A stretch of 64,000 nt of DNA from Myxococcota bacterium (GCA_036012755.1 DASCPX010000087.1:1-64000), one strand, 5' to 3'. Positions 14,990-63,791 are shown, numbered from the stretch's first letter. The notes: generated by a model not told the origin, from the sequence alone. A program made the numbers and translations.

Positions 14990-15614
14990 GCCACGGAAGA
15001 TCCCCGGAGAGGATACCGTCGATCGCCTGTTCGAGCGCGAGGAGCAGCTCGAGCGCGTCAGCGTGCCCGGTGGTGGCGAAGCCTACACCGGCCCCGAGGC
15101 CACGCGAGCTCTGCAGGCACTCGACGCCGAGGCCATGACCGTCGACGGCAGCATCATCGTGCAGGAGGGCTTCGATCCGAGCCGTCCAGCGGATGCAGCC
15201 CTGTTCGCCCACGAGCAGTACCACGTCGAAGAGGGTCGCCCCGGCGCGCTCACTCACGCCATCCACGACGCCGAGGAGGTCGCGGCTCGTGCTGTCGAGT
15301 CGATGGTCTTCCATCGAATGACCGGCGGATACGAGGGCGGCTACCAGCCCGGTGGCGGAGCAGGAGATGCCAAGGGGGGGCAGACCCCCGACCACGGCGG
15401 ACGGGGCACCAGCGAGTTCAACGCCGGCGCCGACACGAAACCAGAGGCCGTCGACGCAGATCCGGACGCCGCCCGCGGCTACCTGGCGATGAAGAAGCTG
15501 GGCATGAACCATGTCGACATCGTCGACAAGCTGGCCCGCGAGGTCGGCTCTGCGATGGACCAGCAGAAGGAGATCGGCCTGGGCAGGACGAGCGACCTGA
15601 AGGGCACGATCTAG
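14988..15614 (+). CDS. DUF4157-like (eCIS core) HExxH domain protein
   Basis: AAAGGAG RBS before ATG 14988; YTGPEA.RAL.AL.AEAMTV..SI...FDP...ALFAHEQYHV...EEVAARAVE. Confidence 0.7.
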   Translation: MPRKIPGEDTVDRLFEREEQLERVSVPGGGEAYTGPEATRALQALDAEAMTVDGSIIVQEGFDPSRPADAALFAHEQYHVEEGRPGALTHAIHDAEEVAARAVESMVFHRMTGGYEGGYQPGGGAGDAKGGQTPDHGGRGTSEFNAGADTKPEAVDADPDAARGYLAMKKLGMNHVDIVDKLAREVGSAMDQQKEIGLGRTSDLKGTI

Positions 15615-17701
15615 ACGAGGTCCTCGACCTGGTCCCAGAAGTCGCCGAAGTGCACGCGGTTGACCTGCTTGCCCATCTTGATCATCTCCATGCCCACCGC
15701 GCGGACGACGTGGCGCTGGTGGACCGCCGTGTCCTCTGTGGCGGCGAGGATGCAGGCGTTGATCGCGGCGTTGACGATGGGGCCGCCGCTGAGGATGAAC
15801 TGGTCGGCGATGTAGTGGAGCTCTACGTCGTCGGCTCTCGGCGCTGCCTTCGGGATGGCGCGCTCCCAGAGCTCCAGGCGCTGCTCGGGGCTGGGCATCG
15901 GGAACTCGACGACAGCGCCGAAGCGGCGGAGGAAGGCCGCGTCGATGTTCTCCTGGAGGTTGGTCGTCAGGATCGCCGCGCCCTCGAAGACCTCGAGGCG
16001 CTGGAGCAGGAAGCTGACCTCCTGGTTCGCGAAGCGGTCCTGGGCCTGCTTGACCTCGCCGCGTGAGCCGAAGAGCGCGTCGGCCTCGTCGAAGAGGATG
16101 ACCGCCGTGCCCCCCTCTGCCGCGTCGAAGATCTCCTTGAGGTTCTTCTCGGTCTCGCCCACCCAGCGAGAGATCACCTGGGAGATGTCCACCTTGAACA
16201 TGTCGAGGCCCAGCTGGTTTGCGATGACCTCTGCGGCCATCGTCTTGCCGGTGCCCGGACCGCCCGAGAAGAGAGCCTTGATGCCGTAGCCGCGCGCTCG
16301 GACATCTCGAGCGCCCCAGCGGTGGAAGACCGTCTCCTGGTGCTCGATGTAGTCGACGAGACCCTGGAGCTTGCCCTTGACCTTCTCCTCGAGGATGAGG
16401 TCGTCCCACTGGTAGCGAGGCACGACGTGCTGGGCGAGGCCGCGAAACTCGGGGCGAGCGCCCTCTCGCGCCGCTGCCCAGAGGACCTCCTCCTTCGGGG
16501 GCCGTCCACCGGACTCGGCGTCGGCCCGCTTCATCACCCGGTCGATCGTGGTTCCGCCGATGGCGTAGAAGCGCTCCGCGATCTCGGGGGCCGGCGTGGG
16601 GTCCCAGCCGCGCTCCTCGAAGGCCTGCGTCCAAGCGTCGATGCGCTCCGGGAAGGTCGACTTGCCACACATGATCGTCACGCTCGGTCGATCAGTGCCC
16701 AGCAGGGTCTTCACGCTGCGACGGTCCGCGGCGCCGACGAGCACCGGGCAGTCCAGCGAGGCCAGGGTCGAGCCCAGGGCGATGACCCTGAGGCGCTGAC
16801 CCGGGTCGTCCTGGGCCTCGATGAGGTTGATCAGGTAGGGGATCGCTCGGGCCAGGCGACACTCGCGGATGAGGTCCCAGGGCTGCTCGAGGTACTCCAT
16901 GCAGCGCTCGAGGTCCACGCGCACCAGCGGGCGCTTCACCCGGCGCGCGATCTCCAGGGCCACCCCCTCGCGGGAGCCCTCTGCGGCGCCGACGATGACG
17001 TAGGTGATGGCGCGGTCGAGCTCGTCGAACTCCTCCAGCCGCCTCTTCGTCGAGCCCGGCACGAAGGGCGAGATGCGCACATCCAGGGGGACGAAGCCCG
17101 GCGAGGAGGGCAGCTCCTCCTCCTCCAGGAGCCACCGGAGCAAGCGGCCGCTGGGATGGACCCGCCTGGAGGTGTGGGTCTCGGCTCCGTCCGGCGGATT
17201 CAGCAAGAGCAGGCGGTTCTTGACCAGCGGCGAGGCCGACATCAGGCGGGCCTGGAGCTGGAGGCGCTGGATGCGCTCGGTCCGCAGCACCCGCGTCGCC
17301 AGGTCGACCGTGAGGTAGCCCTGGTTCAGGTTGTCGTTGAGGTAGGCGAAGATCTTCGAGTACCCGGCGCTGATCTCCGGAGCCAGGGACAGGAGGATGA
17401 GGTCCGCGTCGTCGCCGCCGAGCTGGAAGGCCTGGCGGAGACGCTGGAGGCGCCCACCCGGAGCGTCGCGCAGGCTCTCGCTGGCGCTGATGGCCGCGCC
17501 GAGACCGACGCTGGTCTCGGGGTAGTCGATCTCGCCGTGGGCGCGCAAGAGCGCATCGACCTCGTCGTCCGTGATGACCGAACCCCAGAACTGGCCCTTG
17601 GCCCGCATGGCCGGACGGGCGCGCTGGCGACGCACCGCGCGCAACAGCAACAGGTCGGTGCGTCGCAGTCTCCGGGCGAGCTCTTCGTAGACGGTGGACA
17701 T
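15611..17701 (-). CDS. eCIS AAA+ ATPase (Afp15/Pvc15-like)
   Basis: LAPEI...KIFAYLND...YLTVDLA N-terminal module; WDDLIL, LFSGGPGTGKTMAAEV, SRWVGETEKNL, LFDEADALFG.R, DRFANQEVSFLLQRLE, AFLRRF. Confidence 0.92.
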   Translation of the reverse strand: MSTVYEELARRLRRTDLLLLRAVRRQRARPAMRAKGQFWGSVITDDEVDALLRAHGEIDYPETSVGLGAAISASESLRDAPGGRLQRLRQAFQLGGDDADLILLSLAPEISAGYSKIFAYLNDNLNQGYLTVDLATRVLRTERIQRLQLQARLMSASPLVKNRLLLLNPPDGAETHTSRRVHPSGRLLRWLLEEEELPSSPGFVPLDVRISPFVPGSTKRRLEEFDELDRAITYVIVGAAEGSREGVALEIARRVKRPLVRVDLERCMEYLEQPWDLIRECRLARAIPYLINLIEAQDDPGQRLRVIALGSTLASLDCPVLVGAADRRSVKTLLGTDRPSVTIMCGKSTFPERIDAWTQAFEERGWDPTPAPEIAERFYAIGGTTIDRVMKRADAESGGRPPKEEVLWAAAREGARPEFRGLAQHVVPRYQWDDLILEEKVKGKLQGLVDYIEHQETVFHRWGARDVRARGYGIKALFSGGPGTGKTMAAEVIANQLGLDMFKVDISQVISRWVGETEKNLKEIFDAAEGGTAVILFDEADALFGSRGEVKQAQDRFANQEVSFLLQRLEVFEGAAILTTNLQENIDAAFLRRFGAVVEFPMPSPEQRLELWERAIPKAAPRADDVELHYIADQFILSGGPIVNAAINACILAATEDTAVHQRHVVRAVGMEMIKMGKQVNRVHFGDFWDQVEDLV

Positions 17702-32673: not shown

Positions 32674-34761
32674 CTACCGGCAGATCGCTGTCGACCCCGT
32701 GACGCTGCAGGAGATGGACTTGCCCCCGGAGACACCCTGGACGTTCACCGGCGGCCCGTAGGACTTGATGGTCATCTTGCAGCCGGTGCCGACGTTCGTG
32801 AGCGTCGCAGTGTTGCCTACGACGTTGGCGCGCTGGGAGCCGCTGGGGCAGCTGACCTGCACCTGGGTCGCGTCGATGCCGCTGATCTTCACGATGAGCG
32901 TGCCGCCTGGGACCTTCGGAACTGAGGAGCCACCGCCGCCGCTGCTCGAGGATCCGGAGCCCGGGTTGCGATTGGTCGTGTTGGAGGTCGGCTTGCGCTC
33001 CGGTTGCTCCTCCAAGGGCTCGTCACTGTCGACAGCCGCGGCGCCGTCTGATGCCTTCGACGATCCGTTCGTCCCCTTGGCGACGTCGGCATCGGCCGCC
33101 GCGTTGTCGGCGACCTCTGCGGGATCCGTGTTCTCCCAGGGCCGGAGCCAGACCGCCGCGAAGACCGAGACGCCGACGAGCAGCATCATCGCCAACAGGA
33201 TGGCGAAGACGCGGTTGGACTGGGTGCGGGCGCCGGCGTCGGCGGGGGGGGGCTCACCGGGGCCGCCGCCGACCTGGAAGGGCGTCGCGGCCTTGCCGGA
33301 CTCGTAGCTGGCGACCGGGCCCTTGCCCGGCTGGCCTGCGACCGGACCGCGGATCCCACCAGGAGCCTGGGCGACCGGGCCCTGGGCGATGGGTGCACCG
33401 GGCCCCTGGGCGATGGGCCCCGGGGGAGGCGCCGCAGGAGGTGAAGCGGTCGGACGGCTGTCCTTTGGCGCCGGGATGGCGAAGAAGGCGGTCGCGCTGG
33501 GATCCGCCTCGACGTCGGCTTCTTCCGAGTCCTCTCGAAGGGGGACCATCTCGAGCATCCCGGTCTCGTCCGGGCTGCGCGAGCCCACCTCCCGGACCCT
33601 GGGCTTCCGGGCACCGGCGGGCTCCCATGGGGAAGCCTCCGGCTCCGGGGCGCCACGCTTGTCTGGCTCCTTCCGCCCGGTCGAGGGTTTCTCCGACTGC
33701 TTGCGGGCCTCTGCCTCGCGAGCCATGGACGCGCGCAGGCGCTCCTCCATCGACATGCGACGACGGCGCTGGTTGCCGGACGAGTAGGGCGCACGCCCGA
33801 CGGCCCCGTCGAGGGTGGGTGGATCGGCGAGGTCGTAGATCGAACCGTAGAAGAACTCGGCGAACTCGGCGAGGTAGGAGCCCCTGTCGCGGTAGAGCTG
33901 CTGGCGCAGATCGACCAACAGATCCTGGCCGTTGCGGTAGCGGCCGTCGGGGTTGGCCTGCAGAAGCTTTGCGATGATGGGGCCGACCCCGGGCAGCTTC
34001 GCCTCGAGCTCCTGGCACTGGTCCTGGAGCGCGCCGCGCTCGATGTCGTCGAAGATGTCCCCGAGGGGATCGTGGCTGTCCTCCGCGAGGCGGTAGGCCG
34101 CCTTGTTCATGAACAGCTCGTAGGCGATGAGCCCGAGGCTGAACAGATCCGTGCGGTGGTCGACACCGTCGCCGCTGGCCTGCTCGGGCGCCATGTAGAT
34201 CGGCGTGCCCTTGATGCGGTCGCCGGCTTCGCGAGCGTACTCGTCGTTGTCGACCCGCGCGAGGCCGAAGTCGAGGATCTTCACCTCGCCCGAGCGCGTC
34301 AGCATGATGTTCTCGGGCTTCAGATCCCGGTGGACGAGGTTGAGAGACTCGCCGTTGTCGCTGGGGGTCGTGAAGGCCTGGTACAGCGCGTCCGCGAGCT
34401 CGCAGATCATCTCGACGGCGGCCTCTGTGAAGACCTGCTCGCGGGCCCGCGCGCACTCGTCGAGCACCTGGCGGAGCGTGATGCCGTGCACGTACTCCAT
34501 GACGACCGCGTCGTCGTCCTGGAGGTACTCGAAGACGCGGACGATGCCGCGGTGCTTGACCTCGTCGAGGAGCGCGAACTCCTGGAGCAGGGCGTCGCGG
34601 TTGTGCTCGTTGGTCTCCTTGAGCTTCTTGATCGCGACGAGCCGCCGCTTGCCAGAGCTGATGCCCCGGCCCGGGACCTCGCCGACCGCGACGTAGACGG
34701 TGCCGTACTGACCGGAGCCGAGCTCGCGGAGGATTTCGTAGTTGCGTATGTGGCGAGGCAT
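32674..34761 (-). CDS. Membrane-anchored Hanks-type Ser/Thr protein kinase
   Basis: LGSGQYGTVY, VAIKKL, HRDLKPEN, DFGLA, GTPIYMAPEQ; Pro-rich linker; one TM; small Cys-containing external domain. Confidence 0.95.
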   Translation of the reverse strand: MPRHIRNYEILRELGSGQYGTVYVAVGEVPGRGISSGKRRLVAIKKLKETNEHNRDALLQEFALLDEVKHRGIVRVFEYLQDDDAVVMEYVHGITLRQVLDECARAREQVFTEAAVEMICELADALYQAFTTPSDNGESLNLVHRDLKPENIMLTRSGEVKILDFGLARVDNDEYAREAGDRIKGTPIYMAPEQASGDGVDHRTDLFSLGLIAYELFMNKAAYRLAEDSHDPLGDIFDDIERGALQDQCQELEAKLPGVGPIIAKLLQANPDGRYRNGQDLLVDLRQQLYRDRGSYLAEFAEFFYGSIYDLADPPTLDGAVGRAPYSSGNQRRRRMSMEERLRASMAREAEARKQSEKPSTGRKEPDKRGAPEPEASPWEPAGARKPRVREVGSRSPDETGMLEMVPLREDSEEADVEADPSATAFFAIPAPKDSRPTASPPAAPPPGPIAQGPGAPIAQGPVAQAPGGIRGPVAGQPGKGPVASYESGKAATPFQVGGGPGEPPPADAGARTQSNRVFAILLAMMLLVGVSVFAAVWLRPWENTDPAEVADNAAADADVAKGTNGSSKASDGAAAVDSDEPLEEQPERKPTSNTTNRNPGSGSSSSGGGGSSVPKVPGGTLIVKISGIDATQVQVSCPSGSQRANVVGNTATLTNVGTGCKMTIKSYGPPVNVQGVSGGKSISCSVTGSTAICR

Positions 34762-46074: not shown

Positions 46075-46809
46075 CTACTCATACTTCGCGACCGCCGCGT
46101 CCATGTACTCGGGGACGTGGCCGCTCCAGTTGTCCTTCAGCACGAGCCCGCGGTCGTAGACCAGGTAGGCGGGGATGCCCTGAATGTAGCCCTCGTCGTA
46201 GAGGGACTCGTAGACCCCCTCCTCTTCGAGCACGACCGGGAAGCTCAGGCCGTGGGCCTCGGCCCACTCGCCGAGAAAGGCGACGTCGGCGTCGTTCTCG
46301 TACCAGTTCTCGGTCATGAGGTGCATGAGCAGGACGCCGTCGTCCTTGTGCTCGAGGTAGAAGGGCTCGGCTACGCTGGCGGACTGGTTGCAGGGCCCGC
46401 ACCAGCCCGCGGAGATGTCGACGATCACGACCATCCCGTAGAACTGGTGGAACTGGAGCGTCTCTCCGAACTGGTCGGTCATGGTCCAGCTCGGGGGCAC
46501 CTTGCCCTTGCGCCAGCCCTCCGCCTCCAGACCATCCGCTTCGGCCCTGGCGAGGCACTGTGGCCAGCCACTGGGCACGCTCCAGCAGGCCTGCGGGTCG
46601 CTGCCGGCGGTCTCCTCTTCGACATCGGTGAAGCCGTCGCCGTCGAAGTCCTCGTCCGAGATCGGCCCCGTGTCCGAGCTGTCCACTGCGGAGTCGGAGT
46701 CTTCGAGGGTGCTGTCGTCCGCGGAGCCCCCGCCGGGGCCCCTGCTGCCGTCACCGCCGCCCGCGAAGCCCTCGTGAGGGGCCAGGCAAGCGGCGAGGAC
46801 GAAGGTCAC
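46075..46809 (-). CDS. TlpA/redoxin-family thioredoxin-fold lipoprotein
   Basis: DQFGE, VIVDISAGWCGPC, GIP; GTGA overlap. Confidence 0.85.
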   Translation of the reverse strand: MTFVLAACLAPHEGFAGGGDGSRGPGGGSADDSTLEDSDSAVDSSDTGPISDEDFDGDGFTDVEEETAGSDPQACWSVPSGWPQCLARAEADGLEAEGWRKGKVPPSWTMTDQFGETLQFHQFYGMVVIVDISAGWCGPCNQSASVAEPFYLEHKDDGVLLMHLMTENWYENDADVAFLGEWAEAHGLSFPVVLEEEGVYESLYDEGYIQGIPAYLVYDRGLVLKDNWSGHVPEYMDAAVAKYE

Positions 46810-47651
46810 TCGCCGCTGTAGAGGGCGTCGACCTTGTCGAGAGTCTTGGTGTAGTCCGTGAAGCTGGCGCGGCTGACGGTCATGTCGTCGTCGAGCATGA
46901 ACAGGGTCGGCCAGGCATAGGTCACGTAGGTGCCCGAGACGTTGCCGTCGTCAGCCAACACAGCGATGTGCTCGTCTGGGTAGTCCTCTGCCCACGAGGC
47001 GACGGTGTTCTCGGTGGGCAGACCGCCGTTGTCCTTCTGTCCGATGACAGTGACCCAGTAGACGTCGCCGTTCTCGACCGCAGCCGGCACGTTCGGCCAG
47101 TAGCTTCCGAACCCGCTGCTGTCAGGGCCGCCTGCGATCCAGGAGGCCATGGCGCGGCAGGGACCGCACCAGGTGGCGCTGATGTCGATGACGATCGGCA
47201 CGCCGTGTCCGGCGTAGTCGTAGATGTCGACGACGTCGCCGTACTGGTCCAGGAACTGGAAGCGCGGGACCTGGGCGTCCTTTTCGGCCACGGCGTCTGA
47301 CCACGCAACGTCGCCGTAGCTGTCCTTGTCCGGCTGGTAGGGCCAGCCACCGATGTAGATCACCGAGTCCGCGTTGGCGGGGTCGGTGCCCTCGTCGACC
47401 TCCCATCCATCGAGGTAGCCGTCGCCGTCGCTGTCGTCCGAGTTCGGGTCGGTCCCCAGATCCCACTCGGTGCCGTCATCCAGCCCGTCGCCGTCGCTGT
47501 CGACGTTGTTGGGGTCCGAACCCCAGGCGATCTCGTCCTCGTCCGTGATGCCATCGCCGTCAGTGTCGACTGGCTCGTCGTCCTTGTCCGGGCCAGGGAT
47601 GCACGCGACGAGGGCGATGAGGACCGGGACGGTCAGGAGCGTGGTGCGCAT
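46806..47651 (-). CDS. TlpA/redoxin-family lipoprotein with DxDGDG (TSP3-like) repeats
   Basis: LVAC lipobox; DSDGDG..DG.E...GTDP repeats; VIDISATWCGPC; AWPT. Confidence 0.87.
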   Translation of the reverse strand: MRTTLLTVPVLIALVACIPGPDKDDEPVDTDGDGITDEDEIAWGSDPNNVDSDGDGLDDGTEWDLGTDPNSDDSDGDGYLDGWEVDEGTDPANADSVIYIGGWPYQPDKDSYGDVAWSDAVAEKDAQVPRFQFLDQYGDVVDIYDYAGHGVPIVIDISATWCGPCRAMASWIAGGPDSSGFGSYWPNVPAAVENGDVYWVTVIGQKDNGGLPTENTVASWAEDYPDEHIAVLADDGNVSGTYVTYAWPTLFMLDDDMTVSRASFTDYTKTLDKVDALYSGE

Positions 47652-47819
47652 TGGGGGCCTCGGAGACGGGGTTTCGATGCGTCCCCCTTATAGAGAACGC
47701 GGCGAGGGGGCGATGCAAATGGGGCCGTCAAGCTTTCGACAACTGCCGCGACACTCTACTCGGAAAACCAGGGACCTCGCGAACGGTCTCGGGTGTTAGG
47801 AGCCAGCCTCGGAGAAGCA

Positions 47820-48449
47820 ATGTCCCTTCTTATCCTGAACCTGGCCCTCGCCGGCGACGCCGACAAGGCGCACCCCCACCAGGGTGTCATCTCGCCCTTC
47901 GTCGGCGAGCCCCCCGCCGCGAAGCTGACCGAGACCGACCTCCAGACCCTCGCGGCCAACAAGGCGGTGAAGAAACAGGTGAAGGTCGGCGACAGCGGCG
48001 GACGAGGGGTGGCCATCATGGACATCCACGCGCCGACCGACGTCGTGTGGTCGAAGATCCGCGACTACGACAGCTACCCCAGCTGGGTCGAGAACCTCAA
48101 CACCTGCGAGGTCTACAAGGAAGACGGAGCCGCCCTGTTCGTCTACTTCAAGGCCTCTGTCCTCGGCATCCCGGCAGAGTGGTGGATCGAGCACGACTAC
48201 CAGCCGGGCAAGGGCTACGTCACCTGGACCCTGGACTACTCCAAGCAGTCGGATCTCGACGACTCGGTGGGCTACTGGCGGGTGACCGAGATCAGCGCGG
48301 ATCCGCCCGTCACGCGGGTCGAGTACAGCGTCAACATCCAGCTCTCCGGCTGGGTCCCCTCCGCGTTGGAGGACATGCTCGCCGACAAGGGGCTCACGGT
48401 CGCCACCAGCTGGGTCAAGGCCCAGGCCGAGAAGGAGCACGGCGGGTAG
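47820..48449 (+). CDS. SRPBCC / polyketide-cyclase-like protein with signal peptide
   Basis: IHAPTDVVWSKIRDYDSYPSWV...GYWRV...TRVEY...GWVP. Confidence 0.8.
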   Translation: MSLLILNLALAGDADKAHPHQGVISPFVGEPPAAKLTETDLQTLAANKAVKKQVKVGDSGGRGVAIMDIHAPTDVVWSKIRDYDSYPSWVENLNTCEVYKEDGAALFVYFKASVLGIPAEWWIEHDYQPGKGYVTWTLDYSKQSDLDDSVGYWRVTEISADPPVTRVEYSVNIQLSGWVPSALEDMLADKGLTVATSWVKAQAEKEHGG

Positions 48450-48452
48450 ACC

Positions 48453-50201
48453 GTGCTTCGCAGGACCTTCCTGAAGCTCGCAGGGGCGGTCGGCCTGACC
48501 TCCTCTGCTGCTGTGCGCGCCGCCGAGGGGCGCCCACGTGTGCTGGTCGTAGGGGCAGGCCCAGCCGGGATCTCCTGTGCCACCGAGCTTGCCGAGCGAG
48601 GGGTCGAGGTCGTCGTCCTCGAGGCCGACGGGCAGGCTGGAGGCAAGTGGAAGGGCTGGACAGAGGACCTCGACGGCGAGGTCGTCGACGTCGAACACGG
48701 TGTCCACGGGCTCTGGCACCAGTACGTGCACCTCACGGACCTGCTCGAGCGCGCCGGTCTGGACGGGACGCTGCGGGAACCGGAGAGCTGCGGAGCCCTT
48801 CGCGACCCCGGCGGCGAGCTGAGCGACCTGACCTGGGCCGGGCGTCGGGGGCTGGTGGCGGAGCTCGCGAGCCGCGCGAAGGCCCTGGGCTACGAGCACT
48901 GGCGCCTGGACCTGGGCCGAGCGCTGCGAGCCCAGAGGCGCCTCACCACCGCGATCCGCGATGAACTCGGCGCCGTGAGCCTGCGCGAGCACCTCGACTC
49001 GGGGAAGGCCACGCTCTCGATCTGGCGAGTCTGGGAGGAGATGTTCGCTCGCTCCAGGTACTTCGTCGGACCAGGAGACCTCGACGCCAGCGAGTGGCTC
49101 CTCGGCAGTCGCTTCTACGACACCGGCGGCCGCCACAACCACATGGTGCGCTGGCTCCACGGAAACCCCGGACCGGAGCTCTGGCGTCACCTCGTCGCTC
49201 GACTGGAGAGCCTTGGCGGGGAGCTCCGGCTGGGACAGAAGGTCTCCGAGATCGTCGTCAGCGGCGGGCGCGCGGCGGGTGTGCGGGTCGGAGATCCCCT
49301 CCCCGGCTTCCACATCGAGACCGTGCCGGAGGGCTGGACGCGCCTGTACCGGGGGCCAGGTGCCCCGCCCATCTTCATCGAGAGGGCCGGCGACCGGTAT
49401 CGGGCGTTCTCTGGCCGCTGCACCCACGCCCGCTGTCACCTCACCCTCGGTGAAGAGGGCTTCGAGTGCTCCTGCCACGGCGGGCGCTTCGACTTCGACG
49501 GACAGCCTGTCTCCGGCCCGCCGACGGAGTCGCTGCAAGAGCTCTTCGTGGATGTCGGAAACGACGGCCTCCACGTCGAAGGGGAGCCCCCGAGCGAGGT
49601 GATCCCAGCCGACTTCGTCGTGCTCTGTGTCGACGCGCCGGCGCTGGTCCAGCTGGCCGGCAAGCTCATCCCGCGCCTCGAGGGCCTGAGGGCCTGCCGC
49701 GCGACGGCGGCCCGCTTCTGGCTCGATACGGACGTCTCTGTCGAGGCGGCGCCAGTCGCCCTCTGCAGGGACGTGTCCCACCTCGACACGGTCTTGTTGG
49801 TCCACCGGCTCCAGGACTCGGCGATGGCCTGGGCCGCGAAGACCGGCGGCAGCGTCATCGAGGTCCGGGCGACGAGGGAGTTGCCGACAGGGGACAGGGA
49901 GCGGATCCTCGACGCCCTCGAGGCCGACCTCCGCATGCTCTACCCAAGGCTGTCCCGCGCGAAGGTCCTCAAGCGCACCCTGACGGACAGCCAGTCCTTC
50001 ACCCACTTCGCCCCCGGGTGGTTCGAGCACGCCCCGGATGTAGAGACCGAGCTTCCAGGGCTCCTTGTCGCCGGAGACCACGTCCGGGTGGACCGCAACT
50101 GCCAGCTCTCCGAGCGGGCCGTCTACACCGGACGCCTCGCGGCCAACGTAGTGCTCCGCGCACACGACTTCTCGGCGGCGCCGATACTGGAGGAGCGATG
50201 A
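48453..50201 (+). CDS. FAD-dependent oxidoreductase (carotenoid desaturase/CrtU-like family) with inserted Rieske domain and Tat-like leader
   Basis: RRTFLK leader; VVGAGPAG...LEA...GGK; EHGVHGLWHQY; Rieske CTHARC and CSCHGGRF; AGDHV...ERAV.TG.LAAN. Confidence 0.8.
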   Translation: MLRRTFLKLAGAVGLTSSAAVRAAEGRPRVLVVGAGPAGISCATELAERGVEVVVLEADGQAGGKWKGWTEDLDGEVVDVEHGVHGLWHQYVHLTDLLERAGLDGTLREPESCGALRDPGGELSDLTWAGRRGLVAELASRAKALGYEHWRLDLGRALRAQRRLTTAIRDELGAVSLREHLDSGKATLSIWRVWEEMFARSRYFVGPGDLDASEWLLGSRFYDTGGRHNHMVRWLHGNPGPELWRHLVARLESLGGELRLGQKVSEIVVSGGRAAGVRVGDPLPGFHIETVPEGWTRLYRGPGAPPIFIERAGDRYRAFSGRCTHARCHLTLGEEGFECSCHGGRFDFDGQPVSGPPTESLQELFVDVGNDGLHVEGEPPSEVIPADFVVLCVDAPALVQLAGKLIPRLEGLRACRATAARFWLDTDVSVEAAPVALCRDVSHLDTVLLVHRLQDSAMAWAAKTGGSVIEVRATRELPTGDRERILDALEADLRMLYPRLSRAKVLKRTLTDSQSFTHFAPGWFEHAPDVETELPGLLVAGDHVRVDRNCQLSERAVYTGRLAANVVLRAHDFSAAPILEER

Positions 50202-57315: not shown

Positions 57316-58038
57316 CTAACCGGCCAGCGTCGCCACGATGAGCACGACGACGAGCGCGACCTGCTGCGCGGCCCCGAGCACATCTCCGGTGAGCCCACCG
57401 ATTCGGCGCCGGGCGTGCCAGGAGATCAGCCCGCTGGTGCCGGTGACGGCGAGCAGGGCCGGAAAGAACCACCAGCCGAGACACCAGAGCCCGATGATCC
57501 CCGAGAACAGCCAGGCGAGAGCCAGGCCCTTGCCGCTGAGGCGACCGCCCATGCGAGCGAGGAGGCCGTCTTCACGAGCAGGTCGGGCGGATGCCACCAA
57601 GGTGGTGAGCACGGCCCTGGAGACGACATGGGCGACGATCAGCCCAGAAGCGCCGGTGAGCGCGGAGACCGCTCCGACCTGCAACAGCAGCGAGAGCACG
57701 ACCGCGACCACGCCGTAGGTCCCGAGCATCGAGTCCCGCAGGATGCGCAGCTGGCGCTCGGCGTCCCCGCCCGCTCCGAAGGCGTCAGCGGTGTCGGCGA
57801 GGCCATCGATGTGGAGGGCACCGGTGAGGAAGACCCCGGCTGTGACGGTGAGGGTGGCCCCGAGCCACGCTGGCAGGCCACCGAAGATCCACCACACAAC
57901 GGCCAGGATCAGCCCGACTCCCAGCCCCACCAGCGGGTAGAAGGGCGCGCCGCGCCGGAGATCCTCGTCGGTGATGTCCCCGTACACGGGCACCGGCACG
58001 CGGGTGAGCACGACGATGGCGACGATCAAGGCACGCAC
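57316..58038 (-). CDS. cobS: Adenosylcobinamide-GDP ribazoletransferase (cobalamin synthase)
   Basis: LTRVP, FYPLVG, TGALHIDGLADTAD, ILRDSMLGTYG, IGGLTGDVLGA. Confidence 0.93.
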   Translation of the reverse strand: MRALIVAIVVLTRVPVPVYGDITDEDLRRGAPFYPLVGLGVGLILAVVWWIFGGLPAWLGATLTVTAGVFLTGALHIDGLADTADAFGAGGDAERQLRILRDSMLGTYGVVAVVLSLLLQVGAVSALTGASGLIVAHVVSRAVLTTLVASARPAREDGLLARMGGRLSGKGLALAWLFSGIIGLWCLGWWFFPALLAVTGTSGLISWHARRRIGGLTGDVLGAAQQVALVVVLIVATLAG

Positions 58039-58051
58039 GAGACCGAGGCTA

Positions 58052-58672
58052 CTACTCCTCGTCGAGGACCTCGACCAAGCGGTCCCGAACCCGAAGCACG
58101 AAGCGGTCCCAGCGCTGCCCGGGCCCGTGGCCGAGCAGCCTCTGGAGCCCGGCTTCCTGCTCCGGAGCAGTGGGGAGCCTGGCGATCGATCCGAGCTCCT
58201 CCAGCGCATCCACAAACGGCATGCTGAGCGCGTGGCCGAGCGTCTTGGACAGCGGGTGACAGAAGTGCTTCAACACCGCGAGGCGCTGGGCGGCGTAGGC
58301 CGTGTAGGCCGGCGGGAGCTCGCCCAGGCGGGGCACGAGCACCCTCGCAGAGTTCTCGACCCGCTCCCAAGGATCGTAGCGGCGCCTGCCGTCGACGATC
58401 GGTGGGTACAGGGTCCTGCGGCGTGCTGCCTTTCTCGCGAGGGTGTTGAACCTCTTGAGCAGGGCTGCCTTGCAATAGGCCTTCGGAGCGTCGATGCCCC
58501 CCTTGGCAAGGGCCTCCGACAGTGGCTTGCAGGTGTCCTGGACGAGCTGGTCGGCCAGCTGGGTGCTGATCGATCGCGCCTCTCGGAAGAGCAGCGGGCG
58601 CAGAGCGGACGCAATGGGGGCGGCCTCACCAGAGGCGTGGAGCTTTCGGATGGCATGCCAGCCCGCGTCCAT
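58052..58672 (-). CDS. Divergent ECF sigma-factor-like protein
   Basis: LFREARSI...ADQLVQDT...PKAYCKAALLKRFNTLARKAARR resembles sigma70 region 2; C-terminus RVRDRLVEVL resembles the end of region 4. Confidence 0.5.
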   Translation of the reverse strand: MDAGWHAIRKLHASGEAAPIASALRPLLFREARSISTQLADQLVQDTCKPLSEALAKGGIDAPKAYCKAALLKRFNTLARKAARRRTLYPPIVDGRRRYDPWERVENSARVLVPRLGELPPAYTAYAAQRLAVLKHFCHPLSKTLGHALSMPFVDALEELGSIARLPTAPEQEAGLQRLLGHGPGQRWDRFVLRVRDRLVEVLDEE

Positions 58673-58793
58673 TACAATAGTCTTACCTGCTCGACCTGAC
58701 ACTACACGGTCGCCAGCCCTCCAGCAACAAACTACCGAATATCGCTTGCAACAGTTGGTCGCTCCAGTGTTCGTCTCCCAGGTCGCGGCAGCC
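58673..58793. promoter_or_regulatory. AT-richer divergent intergenic region
   Basis: About 120 bp with visibly lower GC between two divergent starts; no specific site assigned. Confidence 0.45.
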
Positions 58794-61700
58794 ATGGCTG
58801 CTCACGGCGATCCGAAGATCGCCGAGCGGTATGCGCCCGGAGGGGCGCGCCTTGCCCACTACGAACGCGTCGCCTCTTCGCTGCTGCGGAGGCTCGGGGG
58901 AGACGCCGGGATGGCAGGGCTCCTGCACGGCTGCCCGGACGATCTGCCCGAGGCGGTCGAGGCTGCGATCTCGCCAGGAGCTCGCGGGATCCTCCGCGAC
59001 TACGAGCGCCTCCGCGCGCCCTTCCTGTCTCCCGACTCGATCCCTGGCCTCGGGCGTCGCATGATCGAGGAGATGCTCCCCGAGGTGAGGCGGCCAGAGG
59101 CCATCGCCCTCCTCCTCTGCGAGCAGCGCGACCACCTCGACCCCACCGGAGAGCTGACCGGGTGGCTCGTCGCCATGCACCGAGAGCCGGAGCTCGTCTG
59201 TGAGCTCCCTCCACGCGGCCTCGTGCCGATGGTGCGCGAGTTCTCGCTTCACCTCGAGTACGCCGAGGTGGGTCTCTGTCCACTGGCGGAGGAGCTGGGG
59301 CTGTTCTTCGACCGCAACCGGCTCGATGATCTCGTACTCCTCCATCGTGATCCGGATCGGGCCCGGAGGATTCGCCAGTTCGTCGCCGACCAGGCAGGAC
59401 CGGGCGGACTCGCCGCGCGGGGAGCGGAGAAAGTCCGAAACCTGTTCCTCGCCTCGGAGAAGGCCCGCGAGTCCATCCTGAGCTGCAACTGGGAGTGGCG
59501 GCACCTCGGGCGTCTCTCTCGCGTGCTGGGCCCTGACGAGACCGGCTGGGAGAGGCAGCTCCGCCTCTGCGGCTTCGTGACCATCAAGTGCAGCGGCAAG
59601 AGCGCCGCATACCGTGCGCTCGGAGCCCTTCATCAGCTCCGACGCTGCGACCCCAGCGCCTTTCGGGACTACATCTCCGCCAAGCGCATCAGCCAGTACC
59701 GCGCCATCCACACGGCGATCGCGGTCCCGGAGATCGGCGTGGACGGGCCCTTTCCGGTGCGGCTGCTCGCGAGCCAGAGCGCCGAGTCCCGCTACCACGA
59801 GGTCGGGCCGGACGACCTCGGGCAGATCCGCCCGAGGTTGGGACCGCAGCGCTCCGACGCCGACCGCTTCACCGCCTACACCCCGGCAGGAGAGGTGAAG
59901 CGACTGCCCCACGGGGCGGCGGTCCTCAACTTCGCCCTGGAGGTCCACCGGAGCTGGGTCTGCCTGGTCGATCACGCCGTCGTCGCCGGCGAGCACCGAG
60001 GTCTCCTCGACCCCGTCCACGAGGGCGAGGCCGTCGATCTCGTCCTGTTGCCGCAGCCCAGGCCCCTGCCCAAGGGCTGGAAGAAGGCGACCCCCCAGAG
60101 CACCCACGCGGCGATCAAGGCCGGAGCCCGGCGCGCGATGCACGAGCAGCGCCACAAGCAAGGACTGGACTGGGTCGCCATGAAGCTGCAGGAGTCGGGC
60201 ATCGAGGTGGCCCGCGAACGCATAGAGGACTTCGTCGCGGAGGCCGCACGCCAGGCCGCTGCTCGGGAGAAGCTCATCTCGAGCAAAGGAAGCAAGGGGT
60301 CCCCGGGCGGCTGGTGGCTGCGCCAGATCGGGATCCTCCAAGCCCATCGACAGGGAGAACCCACCTACACGAAGGTCGCGATCCAGGAGCATCACCTCGA
60401 CGTACTGCTGCGGACGCTTTGCCGGATCACGGGGACGGTGCTCGACCTGGACTTCGACGCCGAGCTCCGCCTGGGCACCGAGCGCTTCGTCGACTGCGCC
60501 CGCTGCGTTCCCGATCGGGACGGTCCCCTGGCTGTCGTCCGGAGTGGCAAGGAGCTGCGGTTCCACCGGGCAGGCGCCCCCTGCGCTGCAGGCGCCAGCG
60601 AGGTCCGGACGGTGCGCTGGGCGGTCGCACGCCACTACGTCTTGATCGAGGGGAGCAACCGGAAGGGGCTGTTCCGCGATGTCCTCGACGACGTGCGGGA
60701 CCTCGAGCTGGACGTGATCGACTTCGTCGGCCGCCGCTTCGGGCGCAACTGGGCCGTCGCCCGGCTCGAGCTGGACTGCAACGACAGGCGCGTGCTCGAC
60801 GAGCTCGTCCGCCACCTGCAGCGCGTCAGGGGTGTCACGCGAGTGCTCCTGGACGAGCGAGACCCCTTCCTGGAGAACGGCCTGCCCGATCGCCTGGAGG
60901 ACAACCAGCTCCCGGGAGCGGGGGTCCGGGGCAACCCCTACGTACGCGGCGGACCGGTCTACCGGGACGAGAAGTTCTATGGACGAGAGCTGGAGTTCCA
61001 CACGCTCCTCGGGCTCCTCGCCGATGTCCGCCAAGGCGGCCAGATGGCCTGCATCGAGGGGCCGCTGAAGGTCGGAAAGACCTCGCTGGCGCACCGGGTG
61101 CTCAGAGAGGTCAGCCGCCACGCGGACCTCTGGATCCCGGTCTACTACACGACACCCCACGGGACGTCGTGGTCCAGCCGGTACCGGGCTCCGGGAGTGG
61201 ATCTCCCCCCCGCCCGAGACGCCATCGCAGAGCTCCTGGCGCGCTCGGCGGCAGAGGCGGTCCGTCGCCGTGGACTCACCAGCAGCGTGCCCGAGTACGA
61301 CTCACTCGACGACCTCCTGAAGAAGCTGCTGCAGTGGCCAGAGCGCCCGCGCATCGTCCTGGTCATCGACGAGGCCGCGCGCCTTGCGCTGAACTCGGTC
61401 GAGGAGCTGTCCGCTCGAAAGGAGAGCAACACGGGCATCGAGAAGCGAATCGAGGAGGGCCAGCGGGACATCACGCTCGCCGAGCTGGAGCTCCGACCCT
61501 CTGCCAGGCCTGACGCCGACGACCTGGCGCGCTTCGCCCAGAGCGTGGTCTCCAAGCCCGGGCTGGCGGTGATCTGGGTCGGTCCCACGCCTTCGTTCGC
61601 GTCGATCCCCAGCGGCCTCTCGCTGCGTCACGAGCTCTACACGTCCGTTCGACGGATCCCTCTCGGCGCCTTCGGGATCACCGAGGTCGGCCTGCTTCTG

Positions 61701-62138
61701 TCAGCGAAGAAGCTGCGTCCAGCCTCACCGATCCGCTTCCTCGACATCACGCTCCAGGACGTGCACCGGCTCACCGGTGGTGACCCCCTGTTCGTCGGCG
61801 CCATCGCGGACGAGCTGTGGAGTGGTCGACCGGAGGAGGGCTCGCTGGAGTACAGCCCCGAGATGGTGGCGCGCGCTGCCGATCGTGTCCGGAGATTCGG
61901 CTACGAGCTGGACTGCCGGATCGGGCAGTTCGGTCCCCTGCGCCTGCTCGGGCAACAGCTGCTCCAGGGGATGGTGGAGCGCCCCCATCGACCGACAGAT
62001 CGGCTCGACGGAGTCGCACCAGACCTGCACCGACACCTCCTCGACATGCTCTGCATGGCCGGTCTCGCCGTCGTCGACGAGGACGAAGACCATCGGCTTG
62101 CCGCACCCCTGATGAAAAAGTACTTGGGGGCGCTGTGA
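58794..62138 (+). CDS. Degenerate long RelA/SpoT homologue (HD-SYNTH-TGS-helical-ZFD-ACT) fused to a STAND-like P-loop NTPase, 1114 aa
   Basis: AGLLHGCPDD; AYRALGALH...FRDYIS.KR.SQYRAIHT; YTPAGEVKRLPHGAAVLNFALEVH; CARCVP...FHRAGAPC; GSNRKGLFRDV...LQRVRGVTRV; NPY..GGPV...FYGRE; GPLKVGKT; IVLVIDE; TGGDP. Confidence 0.85.
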   Translation: MAAHGDPKIAERYAPGGARLAHYERVASSLLRRLGGDAGMAGLLHGCPDDLPEAVEAAISPGARGILRDYERLRAPFLSPDSIPGLGRRMIEEMLPEVRRPEAIALLLCEQRDHLDPTGELTGWLVAMHREPELVCELPPRGLVPMVREFSLHLEYAEVGLCPLAEELGLFFDRNRLDDLVLLHRDPDRARRIRQFVADQAGPGGLAARGAEKVRNLFLASEKARESILSCNWEWRHLGRLSRVLGPDETGWERQLRLCGFVTIKCSGKSAAYRALGALHQLRRCDPSAFRDYISAKRISQYRAIHTAIAVPEIGVDGPFPVRLLASQSAESRYHEVGPDDLGQIRPRLGPQRSDADRFTAYTPAGEVKRLPHGAAVLNFALEVHRSWVCLVDHAVVAGEHRGLLDPVHEGEAVDLVLLPQPRPLPKGWKKATPQSTHAAIKAGARRAMHEQRHKQGLDWVAMKLQESGIEVARERIEDFVAEAARQAAAREKLISSKGSKGSPGGWWLRQIGILQAHRQGEPTYTKVAIQEHHLDVLLRTLCRITGTVLDLDFDAELRLGTERFVDCARCVPDRDGPLAVVRSGKELRFHRAGAPCAAGASEVRTVRWAVARHYVLIEGSNRKGLFRDVLDDVRDLELDVIDFVGRRFGRNWAVARLELDCNDRRVLDELVRHLQRVRGVTRVLLDERDPFLENGLPDRLEDNQLPGAGVRGNPYVRGGPVYRDEKFYGRELEFHTLLGLLADVRQGGQMACIEGPLKVGKTSLAHRVLREVSRHADLWIPVYYTTPHGTSWSSRYRAPGVDLPPARDAIAELLARSAAEAVRRRGLTSSVPEYDSLDDLLKKLLQWPERPRIVLVIDEAARLALNSVEELSARKESNTGIEKRIEEGQRDITLAELELRPSARPDADDLARFAQSVVSKPGLAVIWVGPTPSFASIPSGLSLRHELYTSVRRIPLGAFGITEVGLLLSAKKLRPASPIRFLDITLQDVHRLTGGDPLFVGAIADELWSGRPEEGSLEYSPEMVARAADRVRRFGYELDCRIGQFGPLRLLGQQLLQGMVERPHRPTDRLDGVAPDLHRHLLDMLCMAGLAVVDEDEDHRLAAPLMKKYLGAL

Positions 62139-63307
62139 CCAACGACCTGCCAGCCTACGAGCCCTACGACCTGCGCACGCGTGAGCTCCGGGATCACCTC
62201 GAACACGAGCGGCTGATGCTGCTCTTCGGCCCCCGCCGGTTCGGCAAGTCACTCATGCTGGACCGGCTCGCAGAGGGCACCGGCATGAAGAAGGTGCGGG
62301 TCGAGGGGCGTCACGGAGGCGTGCCTCCCCTCCCCGACGAACCGGTCACGATCCTGGTAGACGACATGGACTACCTGGTCGCGGGGTCCGGAGGGGCAGC
62401 TCTGGACTCGCTGATCTCGCAGGTGTTCACGAACCCGAAGCACCGACTGGTCGCCACGAGCGGGACGCCGCGCCGTGAGCTCGCTCGCGACCTGGACTCG
62501 AGCTGTGCTTCCTGCTCGGCGCTGCTGATGAACCACTCCCGCTTCCTCGTGCCCTGGTCCGTGGGCTGGGAGCGCCACATCGACGAGGCCTTCCCCGCAG
62601 ACTGGGGTGGCGCCGTGGCTCGGGTGACCGGTGGCTACCCCGAGCTCGTGAACATCTGTCGGAGCGTGGTGTGGACGGCGGACCGCGAGGGGTTCCAGGA
62701 CGAGGGCGAGCGGGACGCGGCCGTGCTCGCCATGCTGCAGAAGAGGTCACCGGCGATCACCTCCATGGACCGACTGCTCCGGCGACTGGACGAGCACCAC
62801 CCCGCGGCCTGGGCCGCACTCCAGCGGACCGTCGAGGGCTCGAAGCGCAGCCCCCACGAGGAGTACGTGTCCGCGTGGGTGGCCCATGGCCTCGCCATCG
62901 ACGGCGGTCTTGGCGATGCCGTCATCGCTCCTGGGGCCTACCTGCGCTGGCGCATCCCGCACTACGAGCCGCTCGAGCGCGAGATCACCGACAACGCCCC
63001 CTTCAGCCTCGTGCCAGAGGGACCTTCATCGGGCAAGGCGGTGATCAGCGGGCCGGGCGGCGACACGCGCACGGTGAAGCTGCGCAAGAAGAAGTGGCAG
63101 CTCGTCCAGGTGCTCCACGAGCACCGGAGCTTCATGTCCGGTGCCCAGCTGCGCGACATCCTGGACCTGGACACGGACGCCGGGCTGCGTTCCCTGGTGG
63201 CGCGCACACGCAAGACCTTCAGCGACCAGCGCGTCGAGGGTGTGATCCTCAACCGCTACGGTGGCGGCTTCGGCCTGGGCGAGCCGCGCCTGCGCCCCAA
63301 GGGCTGA
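62135..63307 (+). CDS. STAND-like P-loop NTPase with C-terminal OmpR-type winged-helix domain, 390 aa
   Basis: GTGA overlap with upstream gene; GPRRFGKS; TILVDDMD; TGGYPELV; LRKKKWQLVQVL...LRSLVARTRK...ILNRYGGGFGL. Confidence 0.8.
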   Translation: MTNDLPAYEPYDLRTRELRDHLEHERLMLLFGPRRFGKSLMLDRLAEGTGMKKVRVEGRHGGVPPLPDEPVTILVDDMDYLVAGSGGAALDSLISQVFTNPKHRLVATSGTPRRELARDLDSSCASCSALLMNHSRFLVPWSVGWERHIDEAFPADWGGAVARVTGGYPELVNICRSVVWTADREGFQDEGERDAAVLAMLQKRSPAITSMDRLLRRLDEHHPAAWAALQRTVEGSKRSPHEEYVSAWVAHGLAIDGGLGDAVIAPGAYLRWRIPHYEPLEREITDNAPFSLVPEGPSSGKAVISGPGGDTRTVKLRKKKWQLVQVLHEHRSFMSGAQLRDILDLDTDAGLRSLVARTRKTFSDQRVEGVILNRYGGGFGLGEPRLRPKG

Positions 63308-63308
63308 G

Positions 63309-63791
63309 TCACCCCGGGGCAGGCAGCAGGACCCACTGCGAGGCCTGCACGGCCAGCCAGACCGGACGCATGGGGTCCTCGCAGAGGGGTGGAGCTTTTG
63401 CGAGCAGGGCCTGGGCGTCCTCGGCGTAGGGAGCGAAGCGCTCCGGGAGGGCCACCACCGCGCGACGAGCGAGGTCGAACTCCAGCGCGTGGGCGTCGGT
63501 CCAACCAAGGAAGCTCAGGGCAGCGGCCACGCTGTCGAGGTTCTCCAGGATTCTCCGGGCGTCGCCTGTCCGTAGGCCGTCGACCAGGGCGCCCGGGTCG
63601 AGGCCGTCTCGGGCATCGGCGACCGTCTCGCCGTGAGCTTCACGCCACGCAACAGCCTCGAGGACCAGCGGGTCGTCGGCTTCAAACCGGGCCAGAAAGC
63701 CAGCGGCTTCCGCGATTCGGAGGGCGTTGTCGCCCTCCGCCAGTGCTACCCCGAGGCAGTCGCGGAGCTCCTCCTGGTCACGGCGAATCAC
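63309..63791 (-). CDS. Helical hypothetical protein, convergent on the NTPase operon
   Basis: AGGAG RBS before GTG 63791; protein-like Ala/Leu/Asp-rich sequence. Confidence 0.55.
   Translation of the reverse strand: MIRRDQEELRDCLGVALAEGDNALRIAEAAGFLARFEADDPLVLEAVAWREAHGETVADARDGLDPGALVDGLRTGDARRILENLDSVAAALSFLGWTDAHALEFDLARRAVVALPERFAPYAEDAQALLAKAPPLCEDPMRPVWLAVQASQWVLLPAPG

Follow-up and report, generated by a model that had tools for sequence, protein, structure and literature searches.

The stretch analysed here, which we call the window, is 64,000 nucleotides of DNA from a Myxococcota bacterium (GCA_036012755.1 DASCPX010000087.1:1-64000). At 58794-62138 on the plus strand, stop codon included, it carries a gene (P0002) in which a RelA/SpoT homologue (RSH) of full length, with the residues of both catalytic sites lost, is fused to a nucleoside triphosphatase (NTPase). 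Directly downstream, at 62135-63307 (+), lies a partner gene (P0004) for a 390-aa AAA+-like P-loop protein with a predicted C-terminal OmpR/PhoB-type winged helix. The fusion gene is a single intact open frame, backed by its homologues and by the GC content at third codon positions (GC3), which is 0.84 in this frame and, with a genome GC of 69%, fits a real gene. Translation from the ATG at 58794 gives a product of 1114 aa, but the start might also be the in-frame GTG at 58767. The open frame reaches back upstream to 58494, and the GC3 signal starts only near 58800.

Residues 1 to about 690 of the fusion follow the domain order of a long RSH: HD, SYNTH, TGS, helical, zinc-finger and ACT. The pseudo-hydrolase (HD-like, residues ~1-200, 58794-59393) has HG instead of HD at H45/G46, within LLHGCPDD (58926-58931 for the two residues), and its ED pair is lost. 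In a Foldseek search with the model, its fold matched the Rel N-terminal domain structures 1vj7, 7oiw and 6s2t. The pseudo-synthetase (RelA_SpoT-like, residues ~201-345, 59394-59828) contains YRALGALH (273-280), DYI (292-294) and YRAIHT (302-307). It has WEWRH in place of GRxKH, and when it was aligned with nine long RSHs encoded in genomes of this phylum, RLCGFVTIK and FPVRLLA stood at the places of the D..G.R and E.QIRT motifs. The regulatory part consists of a TGS domain (residues ~355-425, 59856-60068) with His385 at the end of FALEVH (380-385), an AH-like domain that is all-helical in the model and collinear with TIGR00691 (residues ~430-545, 60081-60428), a ZFD/RIS-like zinc finger (residues ~546-605, 60429-60608) with the ligands C568, C571, H591 and C597, and an ACT/RRM-like domain (residues ~606-690, 60609-60863) with a beta-alpha-beta-beta-alpha-beta arrangement in the model. 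It is followed at residues 714-732 by the stretch NPYVRGGPVYRDEKFYGRE. The first-pass annotation of this DNA had named a series of RSH and NTPase motifs, and we found all of them in the translation of 58794-62135, at the codons where it had placed them.

The resemblance of the fusion to RSH proteins exceeds chance. Pfam TGS matched residues 361-417 (E 1.5e-5, 25.4 bits against a cut-off of 22.2), RelA_SpoT matched residues 264-309 under its cut-off (E 5.2e-5, 23.9 bits against 27), and ACT_4 residues 618-684 below threshold as well (E 0.0075). The NCBIfam model TIGR00691 aligned collinearly (residues 359-684 with model positions 363-685, E 9.5e-15), a SpoT model aligned its positions 167-314 with residues 162-313, and the sequence matches in the PDB were RelA/Rel chains in the same order. 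AlphaFold2, given 85 family members, produced a model with a mean predicted local distance difference test (pLDDT) score of 89.6. In Foldseek, its first ~700 residues matched ribosome-bound RelA (5iqr_8, E 2.8e-21, 716 columns) as well as SpoT (7qpr) and Rel (6yxa). Compared with the long RSHs RelA (5iqr), SpoT (7qpr) and B. subtilis Rel (6yxa), residues 1-690 have the same six-domain order and fold. However, the fusion has both sites dead, fails the TIGR00691 whole-protein cut-off (53.9 against 499.2 bits) and carries an extra NTPase module of ~400 residues.

The core of this module is of the AAA_16/STAND type (residues ~726-935, 60969-61598). Pfam AAA_16 matched residues 727-874 well above the cut-off (E 9.3e-12, 46.2 bits against 32.6), and AAA_22 matched too. 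Walker A is GPLKVGKTS (61059-61085; GPLKVGKT, residues 756-763, at 61059-61082) and Walker B is VLVIDE (residues 855-860, 61356-61373). The remaining helical and winged-helix-like part (residues ~936-1114, 61599-62135), assigned from the model and its fold, contains the GxP-type motif TGGDP (residues 994-998, 61773-61787). G761, K762 and S764 of Walker A and D859 and E860 of Walker B are invariant (85/85; the counts here and below refer to an alignment of 85 family members), and the GxP-type motif is nearly so (T994 79/85, G996 85/85, P998 78/85). The predicted NTPase retains all motifs for nucleotide binding and hydrolysis. Foldseek with the last ~400 residues returned the archaeal Walker ATPases 2qen and 2fna, ORC1/Cdc6 and the NLR resistosome 9h2l; for the whole fusion, 2qen was the best NTPase-type match (E 1.6e-8, TM 0.66 on the target) and ranked below the RSH matches. 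No C-terminal repeat or other sensor domain was found after the winged-helix-like part by Pfam or in the model. Pfam, TIGR00691, the PDB matches and AlphaFold2 with Foldseek all confirm the first-pass view of a full-length RSH joined to an NTPase, in which Walker A and B are intact.

Next, we looked at the family of the fusion. HMMER was run exhaustively against 1.84 billion cluster representatives; 714 matched at E<=1e-3, of which 153 reached E<=1e-10 and 108 reached E<=1e-30. The strong matches were mostly 1000-1200 aa long, most of them about 1100 aa, and matched end to end; in databases the members are labelled only "hypothetical protein", "HD domain-containing protein" or "GTP pyrophosphokinase". 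Two alignments were made, one of 96 full-length members with the nine same-phylum long RSHs and the second of 85 members. The Asp of the HD pair occurs in 2/85 and is a Gly in 60/85; of the ED pair, E remains in 5/85 and D in 14/85. In the synthetase, the Asp of D..G.R is present in 2/85, and the Glu and the Gln of E.QIRT in 1/85 each, with Arg in the Gln position in 63/85. The erosion of both catalytic sites, suggested earlier for this gene, is a property of the whole clade.

Other residues of the two dead domains are strongly conserved. H22 (73/85), H45 (68/85) and D116 (83/85) are kept in the pseudo-hydrolase. In the pseudo-synthetase RxK is replaced by WEW[RH]H, with W233 and W235 each in 83/85, and G260 (82/85), H280 (83/85), D292 (78/85), Y302 (80/85) and T307 (79/85) are kept. 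The mean pairwise identity of the pseudo-HD and pseudo-SYNTH domains is 27% each, and that of the NTPase core is 27.6%. Since new residues are conserved in the old sites and the identity equals that of the NTPase core, the alignment indicates that the dead catalytic domains are under selection. The best-conserved domain is TGS with 38% and the least conserved is the helical domain with 21%. The zinc ligands are near-universal (C568, C571 and H591 in 84/85 each, C597 in 75/85) and R657 of the ACT domain is invariant (85/85), so that TGS, zinc finger and ACT can all be recognised as kept regulatory domains. Neutral decay of a pseudogene is ruled out by the 108 representatives at E<=1e-30, the intact frame and dead domains that are conserved like the NTPase core.

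The GTG start of the partner gene (62135) overlaps the TGA stop of the fusion (62136-62138) as GTGA, a translational coupling, and its frame to 63307 is backed by the GC3 signal. The first-pass annotation was right about the fusion, but its one-gene picture overlooked this coupled and conserved partner. We compared ten loci from three phyla, namely eight of Myxococcota (the window and seven others), one from a Gemmatimonas metagenome-assembled genome (MAG) and one on a metagenome contig from a related clade, whose protein is named Ktedonobacteraceae at NCBI. A partner-type gene lies directly 3' of the fusion in 10/10 of them, at junctions with overlaps of 4 nt (ATGA or GTGA), 8 nt or 11 nt, or with gaps of 16 and 28 nt. 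The partner of the window has a Walker A motif, FGPRRFGKS (about 62228-62251), a Walker B-like ILVDDMD and a GGYP motif that is GGHP in relatives. A profile of seven partners matched AAA+ cores (E about 1e-7) and the DNA-binding domains of the response regulators 5za3 (1e-4) and 2d1v (4.4e-4), and orthologous partners pass Pfam Trans_reg_C with 61.3 and 30 bits (cut-off 26.2). The winged helix is predicted at about 63002-63289. The model of the partner has a pLDDT of 67.9 overall and 84-90 in the last ~80 residues, which form a beta-sheet, three helices and a hairpin.

The best fold match of the partner is 2qen (E 7e-6), the structure that also led the NTPase-type matches of the fusion. As to a possible paralogy of the partner and the NTPase module of the fusion, a profile-profile comparison of the two aligned only 30 columns, at the P-loop. 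The prediction of a complex between the NTPase module (residues 712-1114) and the partner scored 0.00 against a mark of 0.32, which speaks neither for nor against binding. Since the partner supplies the likely output, we regard the locus as a two-gene system.

To see where the fusion occurs, we searched 401 genomes of the phylum with a profile of 30 family members. End-to-end matches were found in 8/401, the window's genome included, and the remaining matches listed are ordinary Rel genes, aligned over the RSH part alone. The fusion gene is accessory and patchy, because no end-to-end match turned up in any of the 11 further genomes from the family to which the window's genome belongs. A canonical rel is present elsewhere in the window's genome, as anticipated in the first pass (G000:C27, 721 aa, 724.4 bits on TIGR00691 with the cut-off at 499.2), and a second, canonical-type match is listed in four of the seven other carrier genomes. 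By their source names, relatives come from three phyla: a Myxococcales MAG, a Gemmatimonas MAG, and Caldilineaceae and Ktedonobacteraceae from the related clade. Among atlas clusters that share this set of domains, the label is mostly Chloroflexota.

Carriage on mobile elements was rejected: by tblastn, 72,556 plasmid and 50,697 phage records contained no full-length copy, and gave only partial matches of 25-40% of the query within residues 34-481, in the RSH part. A known defence system gets no support from PADLOC either, which was run on the fusion, the partner, the products of four nearby genes and another 29 open reading frames (ORFs) of the window. PADLOC-DB 2.0 had no significant match for the fusion or the partner, the best being mad8 (E 0.033) and PDC-S01 (E 0.0011), on P-loop stretches only. 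No defence genes were found within ~20 kb of the fusion gene among the 35 window ORFs; the only matches there were a generic kinase and an AAA protein more than 20 kb away. These are a Ser/Thr-kinase-like protein at 32674-34761 (-) with many PD-T4-6/mad6 matches and an AAA ATPase at 15611-17701 (-) with IetA/TRIP13-type matches, and both are probably generic domain matches.

A related clade (P0125-P0152, with the source names Caldilineaceae and Ktedonobacteraceae, Chloroflexota) matches the window's family more weakly and has the same length, the same RSH-NTPase fusion and the same partner, but it resembles canonical Rel far more in the RSH part. Twelve of its proteins were scanned; HD_4 reached 96 bits and RelA_SpoT 59 bits, and several matched nSTAND1 (28.7 bits against a cut-off of 27.1). 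Among 16 members, the HD pair is kept in 12/16, the ED pair in 0/16, the synthetase Glu in 4/16 and the Gln in 0/16, and P0140 alone keeps GRxK together with the Asp and the Glu of the synthetase. A metagenome scan with P0140 found six loci, of which one (L044) was examined, and a scan with P0135 found no loci. The P0140-type protein of L044 matched RelA_SpoT with 67 bits, and its partner is the one with 61.3 bits on Trans_reg_C. This protein (946 aa, L044:3983-6823, +) has its ACT domain (478-548) directly after TGS (386-443) and seems to be without the helical and zinc-finger domains.

Since the related clade is less degenerate, the two clades form a gradient of degeneration with the window's clade as the end point. 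In a quick maximum-likelihood tree of 54 N-terminal halves the window's clade stands on a long branch with an SH-aLRT support of 100, and the canonical RSHs can be set apart from all others along a branch with a support of 75. The tree would fit a fusion that arose only once, but does not prove it.

Known transcription regulators of the STAND class include the MalT/LAL and AfsR/SARP types, and SARP regulators use an OmpR-type winged helix. The list of STAND features that Leipe et al. reportedly gave in 2004 includes a helical and winged-helix extension and a GxP-type motif. Like the MalT/LAL and AfsR/SARP regulators, the fusion has an AAA_16-type NTPase with Walker A and B, a GxP-type motif and helical and winged-helix parts, and the system has a predicted DNA-binding output. 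Unlike in those regulators, the DNA-binding domain is on a separate ATPase, a tetratricopeptide or other repeat sensor is missing, and an entire pseudo-Rel stands at the N-terminus. The best structural matches of the C-terminal module and the partner come from the group of the archaeal Walker-type ATPases PAB2304 (2qen) and SSO1545 (2fna), Pfam ATPase_2, and ORC1/Cdc6. These are stand-alone proteins with poorly known functions, and have neither an RSH module nor an OmpR-type domain. Judged on sequence, the fusion looks like a long RSH, fails Rel/RelA/SpoT in catalytic residues and score, and would work like a STAND signalling NTPase.

These results suggest that the fusion and its partner form a two-protein STAND-type switch, with the dead Rel as input and the DNA-binding ATPase as transcriptional output, and we give this reading a probability of roughly 0.45. 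The fusion probably senses a starvation signal and relays it to gene regulation, rather than making the alarm molecule. As the first-pass annotation had done, we infer a role of the dead Rel as a ribosome/tRNA or alarmone receptor. The module would still recognise a Rel ligand: either the remodelled catalytic pockets would take up the alarmone or a guanine nucleotide, or TGS, zinc finger and ACT would bind deacylated tRNA and the starved ribosome. Binding of the ligand would release the NTPase module to exchange nucleotide and oligomerise, and the oligomer would recruit or activate the partner, bringing it onto DNA and changing transcription. Starvation or translation stress would in this way be tied to gene expression without the system's own (p)ppGpp synthesis.

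Several points weigh against such a transcriptional switch. A STAND protein usually carries its effector at the N-terminus and its sensor at the C-terminus, so an N-terminal input module reverses the usual layout. The TGS His is not universal (55/85, with Asn in 13/85). The window's own partner has no Pfam match, Trans_reg_C included, and its winged helix is derived from the alignment profile, the orthologues and a model of moderate confidence. Walker A is degenerate in two of the seven aligned partners, and therefore the ATPase activity of the partner is not always needed. Finally, the absence of end-to-end matches from the other 11 genomes of the family and the variable flanks fit the usual pattern of an accessory conflict system no less than that of an accessory regulator.

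A more far-reaching form of the switch, which we put forward tentatively and consider doubtful, is a (p)ppGpp-independent branch of the stringent response. Here the dead Rel, seated on the starved ribosome together with deacylated tRNA or acting as an alarmone receptor, would set the STAND switch and the partner would reprogramme transcription; in its mirror image the protein would be a bacterial NLR that carries the stringent factor as an integrated decoy against phage.

We consider it unlikely that the pair is an anti-phage or conflict guard system, with the full-length dead Rel as an integrated decoy on a bacterial NLR-like NTPase and the partner as effector. Such a system would detect phage proteins that attack or mimic the stringent factor, or damage done by phage to tRNA or ribosomes. 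The patchy occurrence (8 of the 401 phylum genomes, and 0 of the further 11 in the family) and the variable flanks would fit it, as would the STAND-type NTPase with the nSTAND1 matches of the related clade (28.7 against 27.1 bits), and a shape that is kept while the activity is lost is the expected look of a decoy. RSH-derived domains are also known from conflict systems. According to the part of the source available, fungal NLRs have a small RelA_SpoT domain as N-terminal effector (PMC4986451), and the available part of another text mentions RelA-type and TGS domains only as rare domains in the effector position of vWA-MoxR systems, among the conflict systems of multicellular bacteria (PMC7159879). 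The fusion resembles the fungal NLRs and the bacterial ternary conflict systems in that an RSH-derived domain is joined to a STAND/NLR-type NTPase. However, theirs is a small and presumably active synthetase, whereas the fusion has a long RSH of full length with its regulatory domains and without the catalytic residues, and a Pfam scan of the window ORFs found no vWA-MoxR components near its gene. The missing PADLOC match beyond P-loop stretches, the lack of defence genes within ~20 kb and of full-length copies on plasmids or phages all speak against a guard system, and an OmpR/PhoB-type winged helix is a domain of transcription factors and not a usual killing effector. The toxSAS/CapRel systems differ as well, since they pair an active toxin synthetase with an adjacent or fused antitoxin, while the synthetase residues of the fusion are lost and its neighbour is an ATPase with a winged helix instead of a small antitoxin.

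Another idea is that the RSH part is an enzyme with a non-canonical chemistry or substrate and serves as effector of the NTPase switch, with WEW[RH]H, R323 and H22/H45/D116 forming a new active site. The N-terminus is the usual position of a STAND effector, the strongly conserved new residues lie exactly at both former active sites, and the HD pair in 12/16 of the related clade, together with GRxK, Asp and Glu in P0140, hints that the ancestor may have been active. Nevertheless, all the known RSH synthetase residues for ATP phosphate and magnesium are replaced together (Arg to Glu in 67/85 and Gln to Arg in 63/85, with the Asp left in 2/85 and the Glu in 1/85), the metal-binding Asp and the ED pair of the hydrolase are lost, and even the related clade has the ED pair and the Gln in 0/16. 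This makes a new enzyme improbable.

Equally improbable is that the fusion regulates the canonical stringent response or competes with it, as a dead Rel that occupies the Rel site on starved ribosomes or pairs with Rel and so tunes (p)ppGpp, with the NTPase driving release or recycling and DNA binding of the partner being secondary, for instance for autoregulation; the kept TGS, zinc finger and ACT, TGS being the most conserved, and the canonical Rel in the window's genome and in four of the seven other carriers would suit it, but it leaves unexplained both the coupling to a DNA-binding ATPase in 10/10 loci of three phyla and the conservation of the dead catalytic domains.

Long RSHs are known only as enzymes. 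RelA already has a pseudo-hydrolase, so one dead domain is familiar in the long RSH family, and with it RelA still makes (p)ppGpp. If the two-protein switch is real, with both sites dead and the domains under selection, it would show that the scaffold of Rel can be turned into a sensor and nothing else. Being naturally free of catalysis, such a protein would be useful for finding out what is recognised by Rel's regulatory domains, and Myxococcota, Gemmatimonadota and Chloroflexota would have a new path by which starvation or translation stress reaches transcription. Should the protein instead be an immune sensor of the decoy type, bacteria would join plants, with their NLRs, in the use of integrated decoys.

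A dead long RSH with an NTPase and a coupled DNA-binding ATPase appears to be undescribed, as no description of a long RSH-NTPase fusion was found in the literature searched, which comprised main texts, while supplements, which might list such architectures, were outside the scope. The main texts of the RSH classification papers PMC3153485 and PMC7229694 contain no word beginning with AAA, ATPase or NTPase, and the sole "P-loop" match in PMC3153485 is in its reference list. In the part of the text available, nSTAND1 is defined without a link to RSH (PMC8195603).

Two of the nine long RSHs used as controls (L020, G012:C1, and L022, G042:C1) keep HD and ED and have a dead synthetase, e.g. with TYNLIFIT for EVQIRT. 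They look like SpoT-like hydrolase-only paralogues of Rel.

Apart from the partner, no neighbour was common to distant loci among the ten compared. A small gene for a Dabb protein (stress-responsive A/B barrel) follows 3' of the partner in two closely related loci only (L035:5971-6255, - and L037:325-627, -). In the Gemmatimonas locus, a large ORF that by eye is leucyl-tRNA synthetase-like (L042:909-3374, -) lies two genes upstream of the fusion and is divergent from it, probably by coincidence.

Upstream of the fusion gene in the window, a sigma-70-like promoter candidate, ATGGCA-17-TACAAT, lies at 58650-58678 (+) in the divergent intergenic region; it is a consensus match only, with one site found and 0.2 expected in shuffles. 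An ORF with coding-type GC3 at 58052-58795 (-), probably limited to ~58052-58650, is divergent from the fusion operon and had no match in Pfam or PADLOC. It lies between the fusion gene and cobS (57316-58215, Pfam CobS E 4.8e-47). Short contig fragments of 58700-63400 were found in seawater and hydrothermal-vent metagenome runs from four other studies. They are mostly identical to the window, with 35 of the 48 fragment records at an identity of at least 99%; the pieces of low identity are short and fit only partly, and no differences are listed. Among RNA runs, none was listed as containing the locus.

Further upstream, the window contains two tandem genes at 46075-47651 (-), each with bacterial TSP3 repeats and a thioredoxin/AhpC-like domain. 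It also contains a polyketide-cyclase/SRPBCC-like gene (47793-48449), which precedes a gene at 48453-50201 (+) for a 582-aa protein with amine-oxidase/FAD and Rieske [2Fe-2S] domains.

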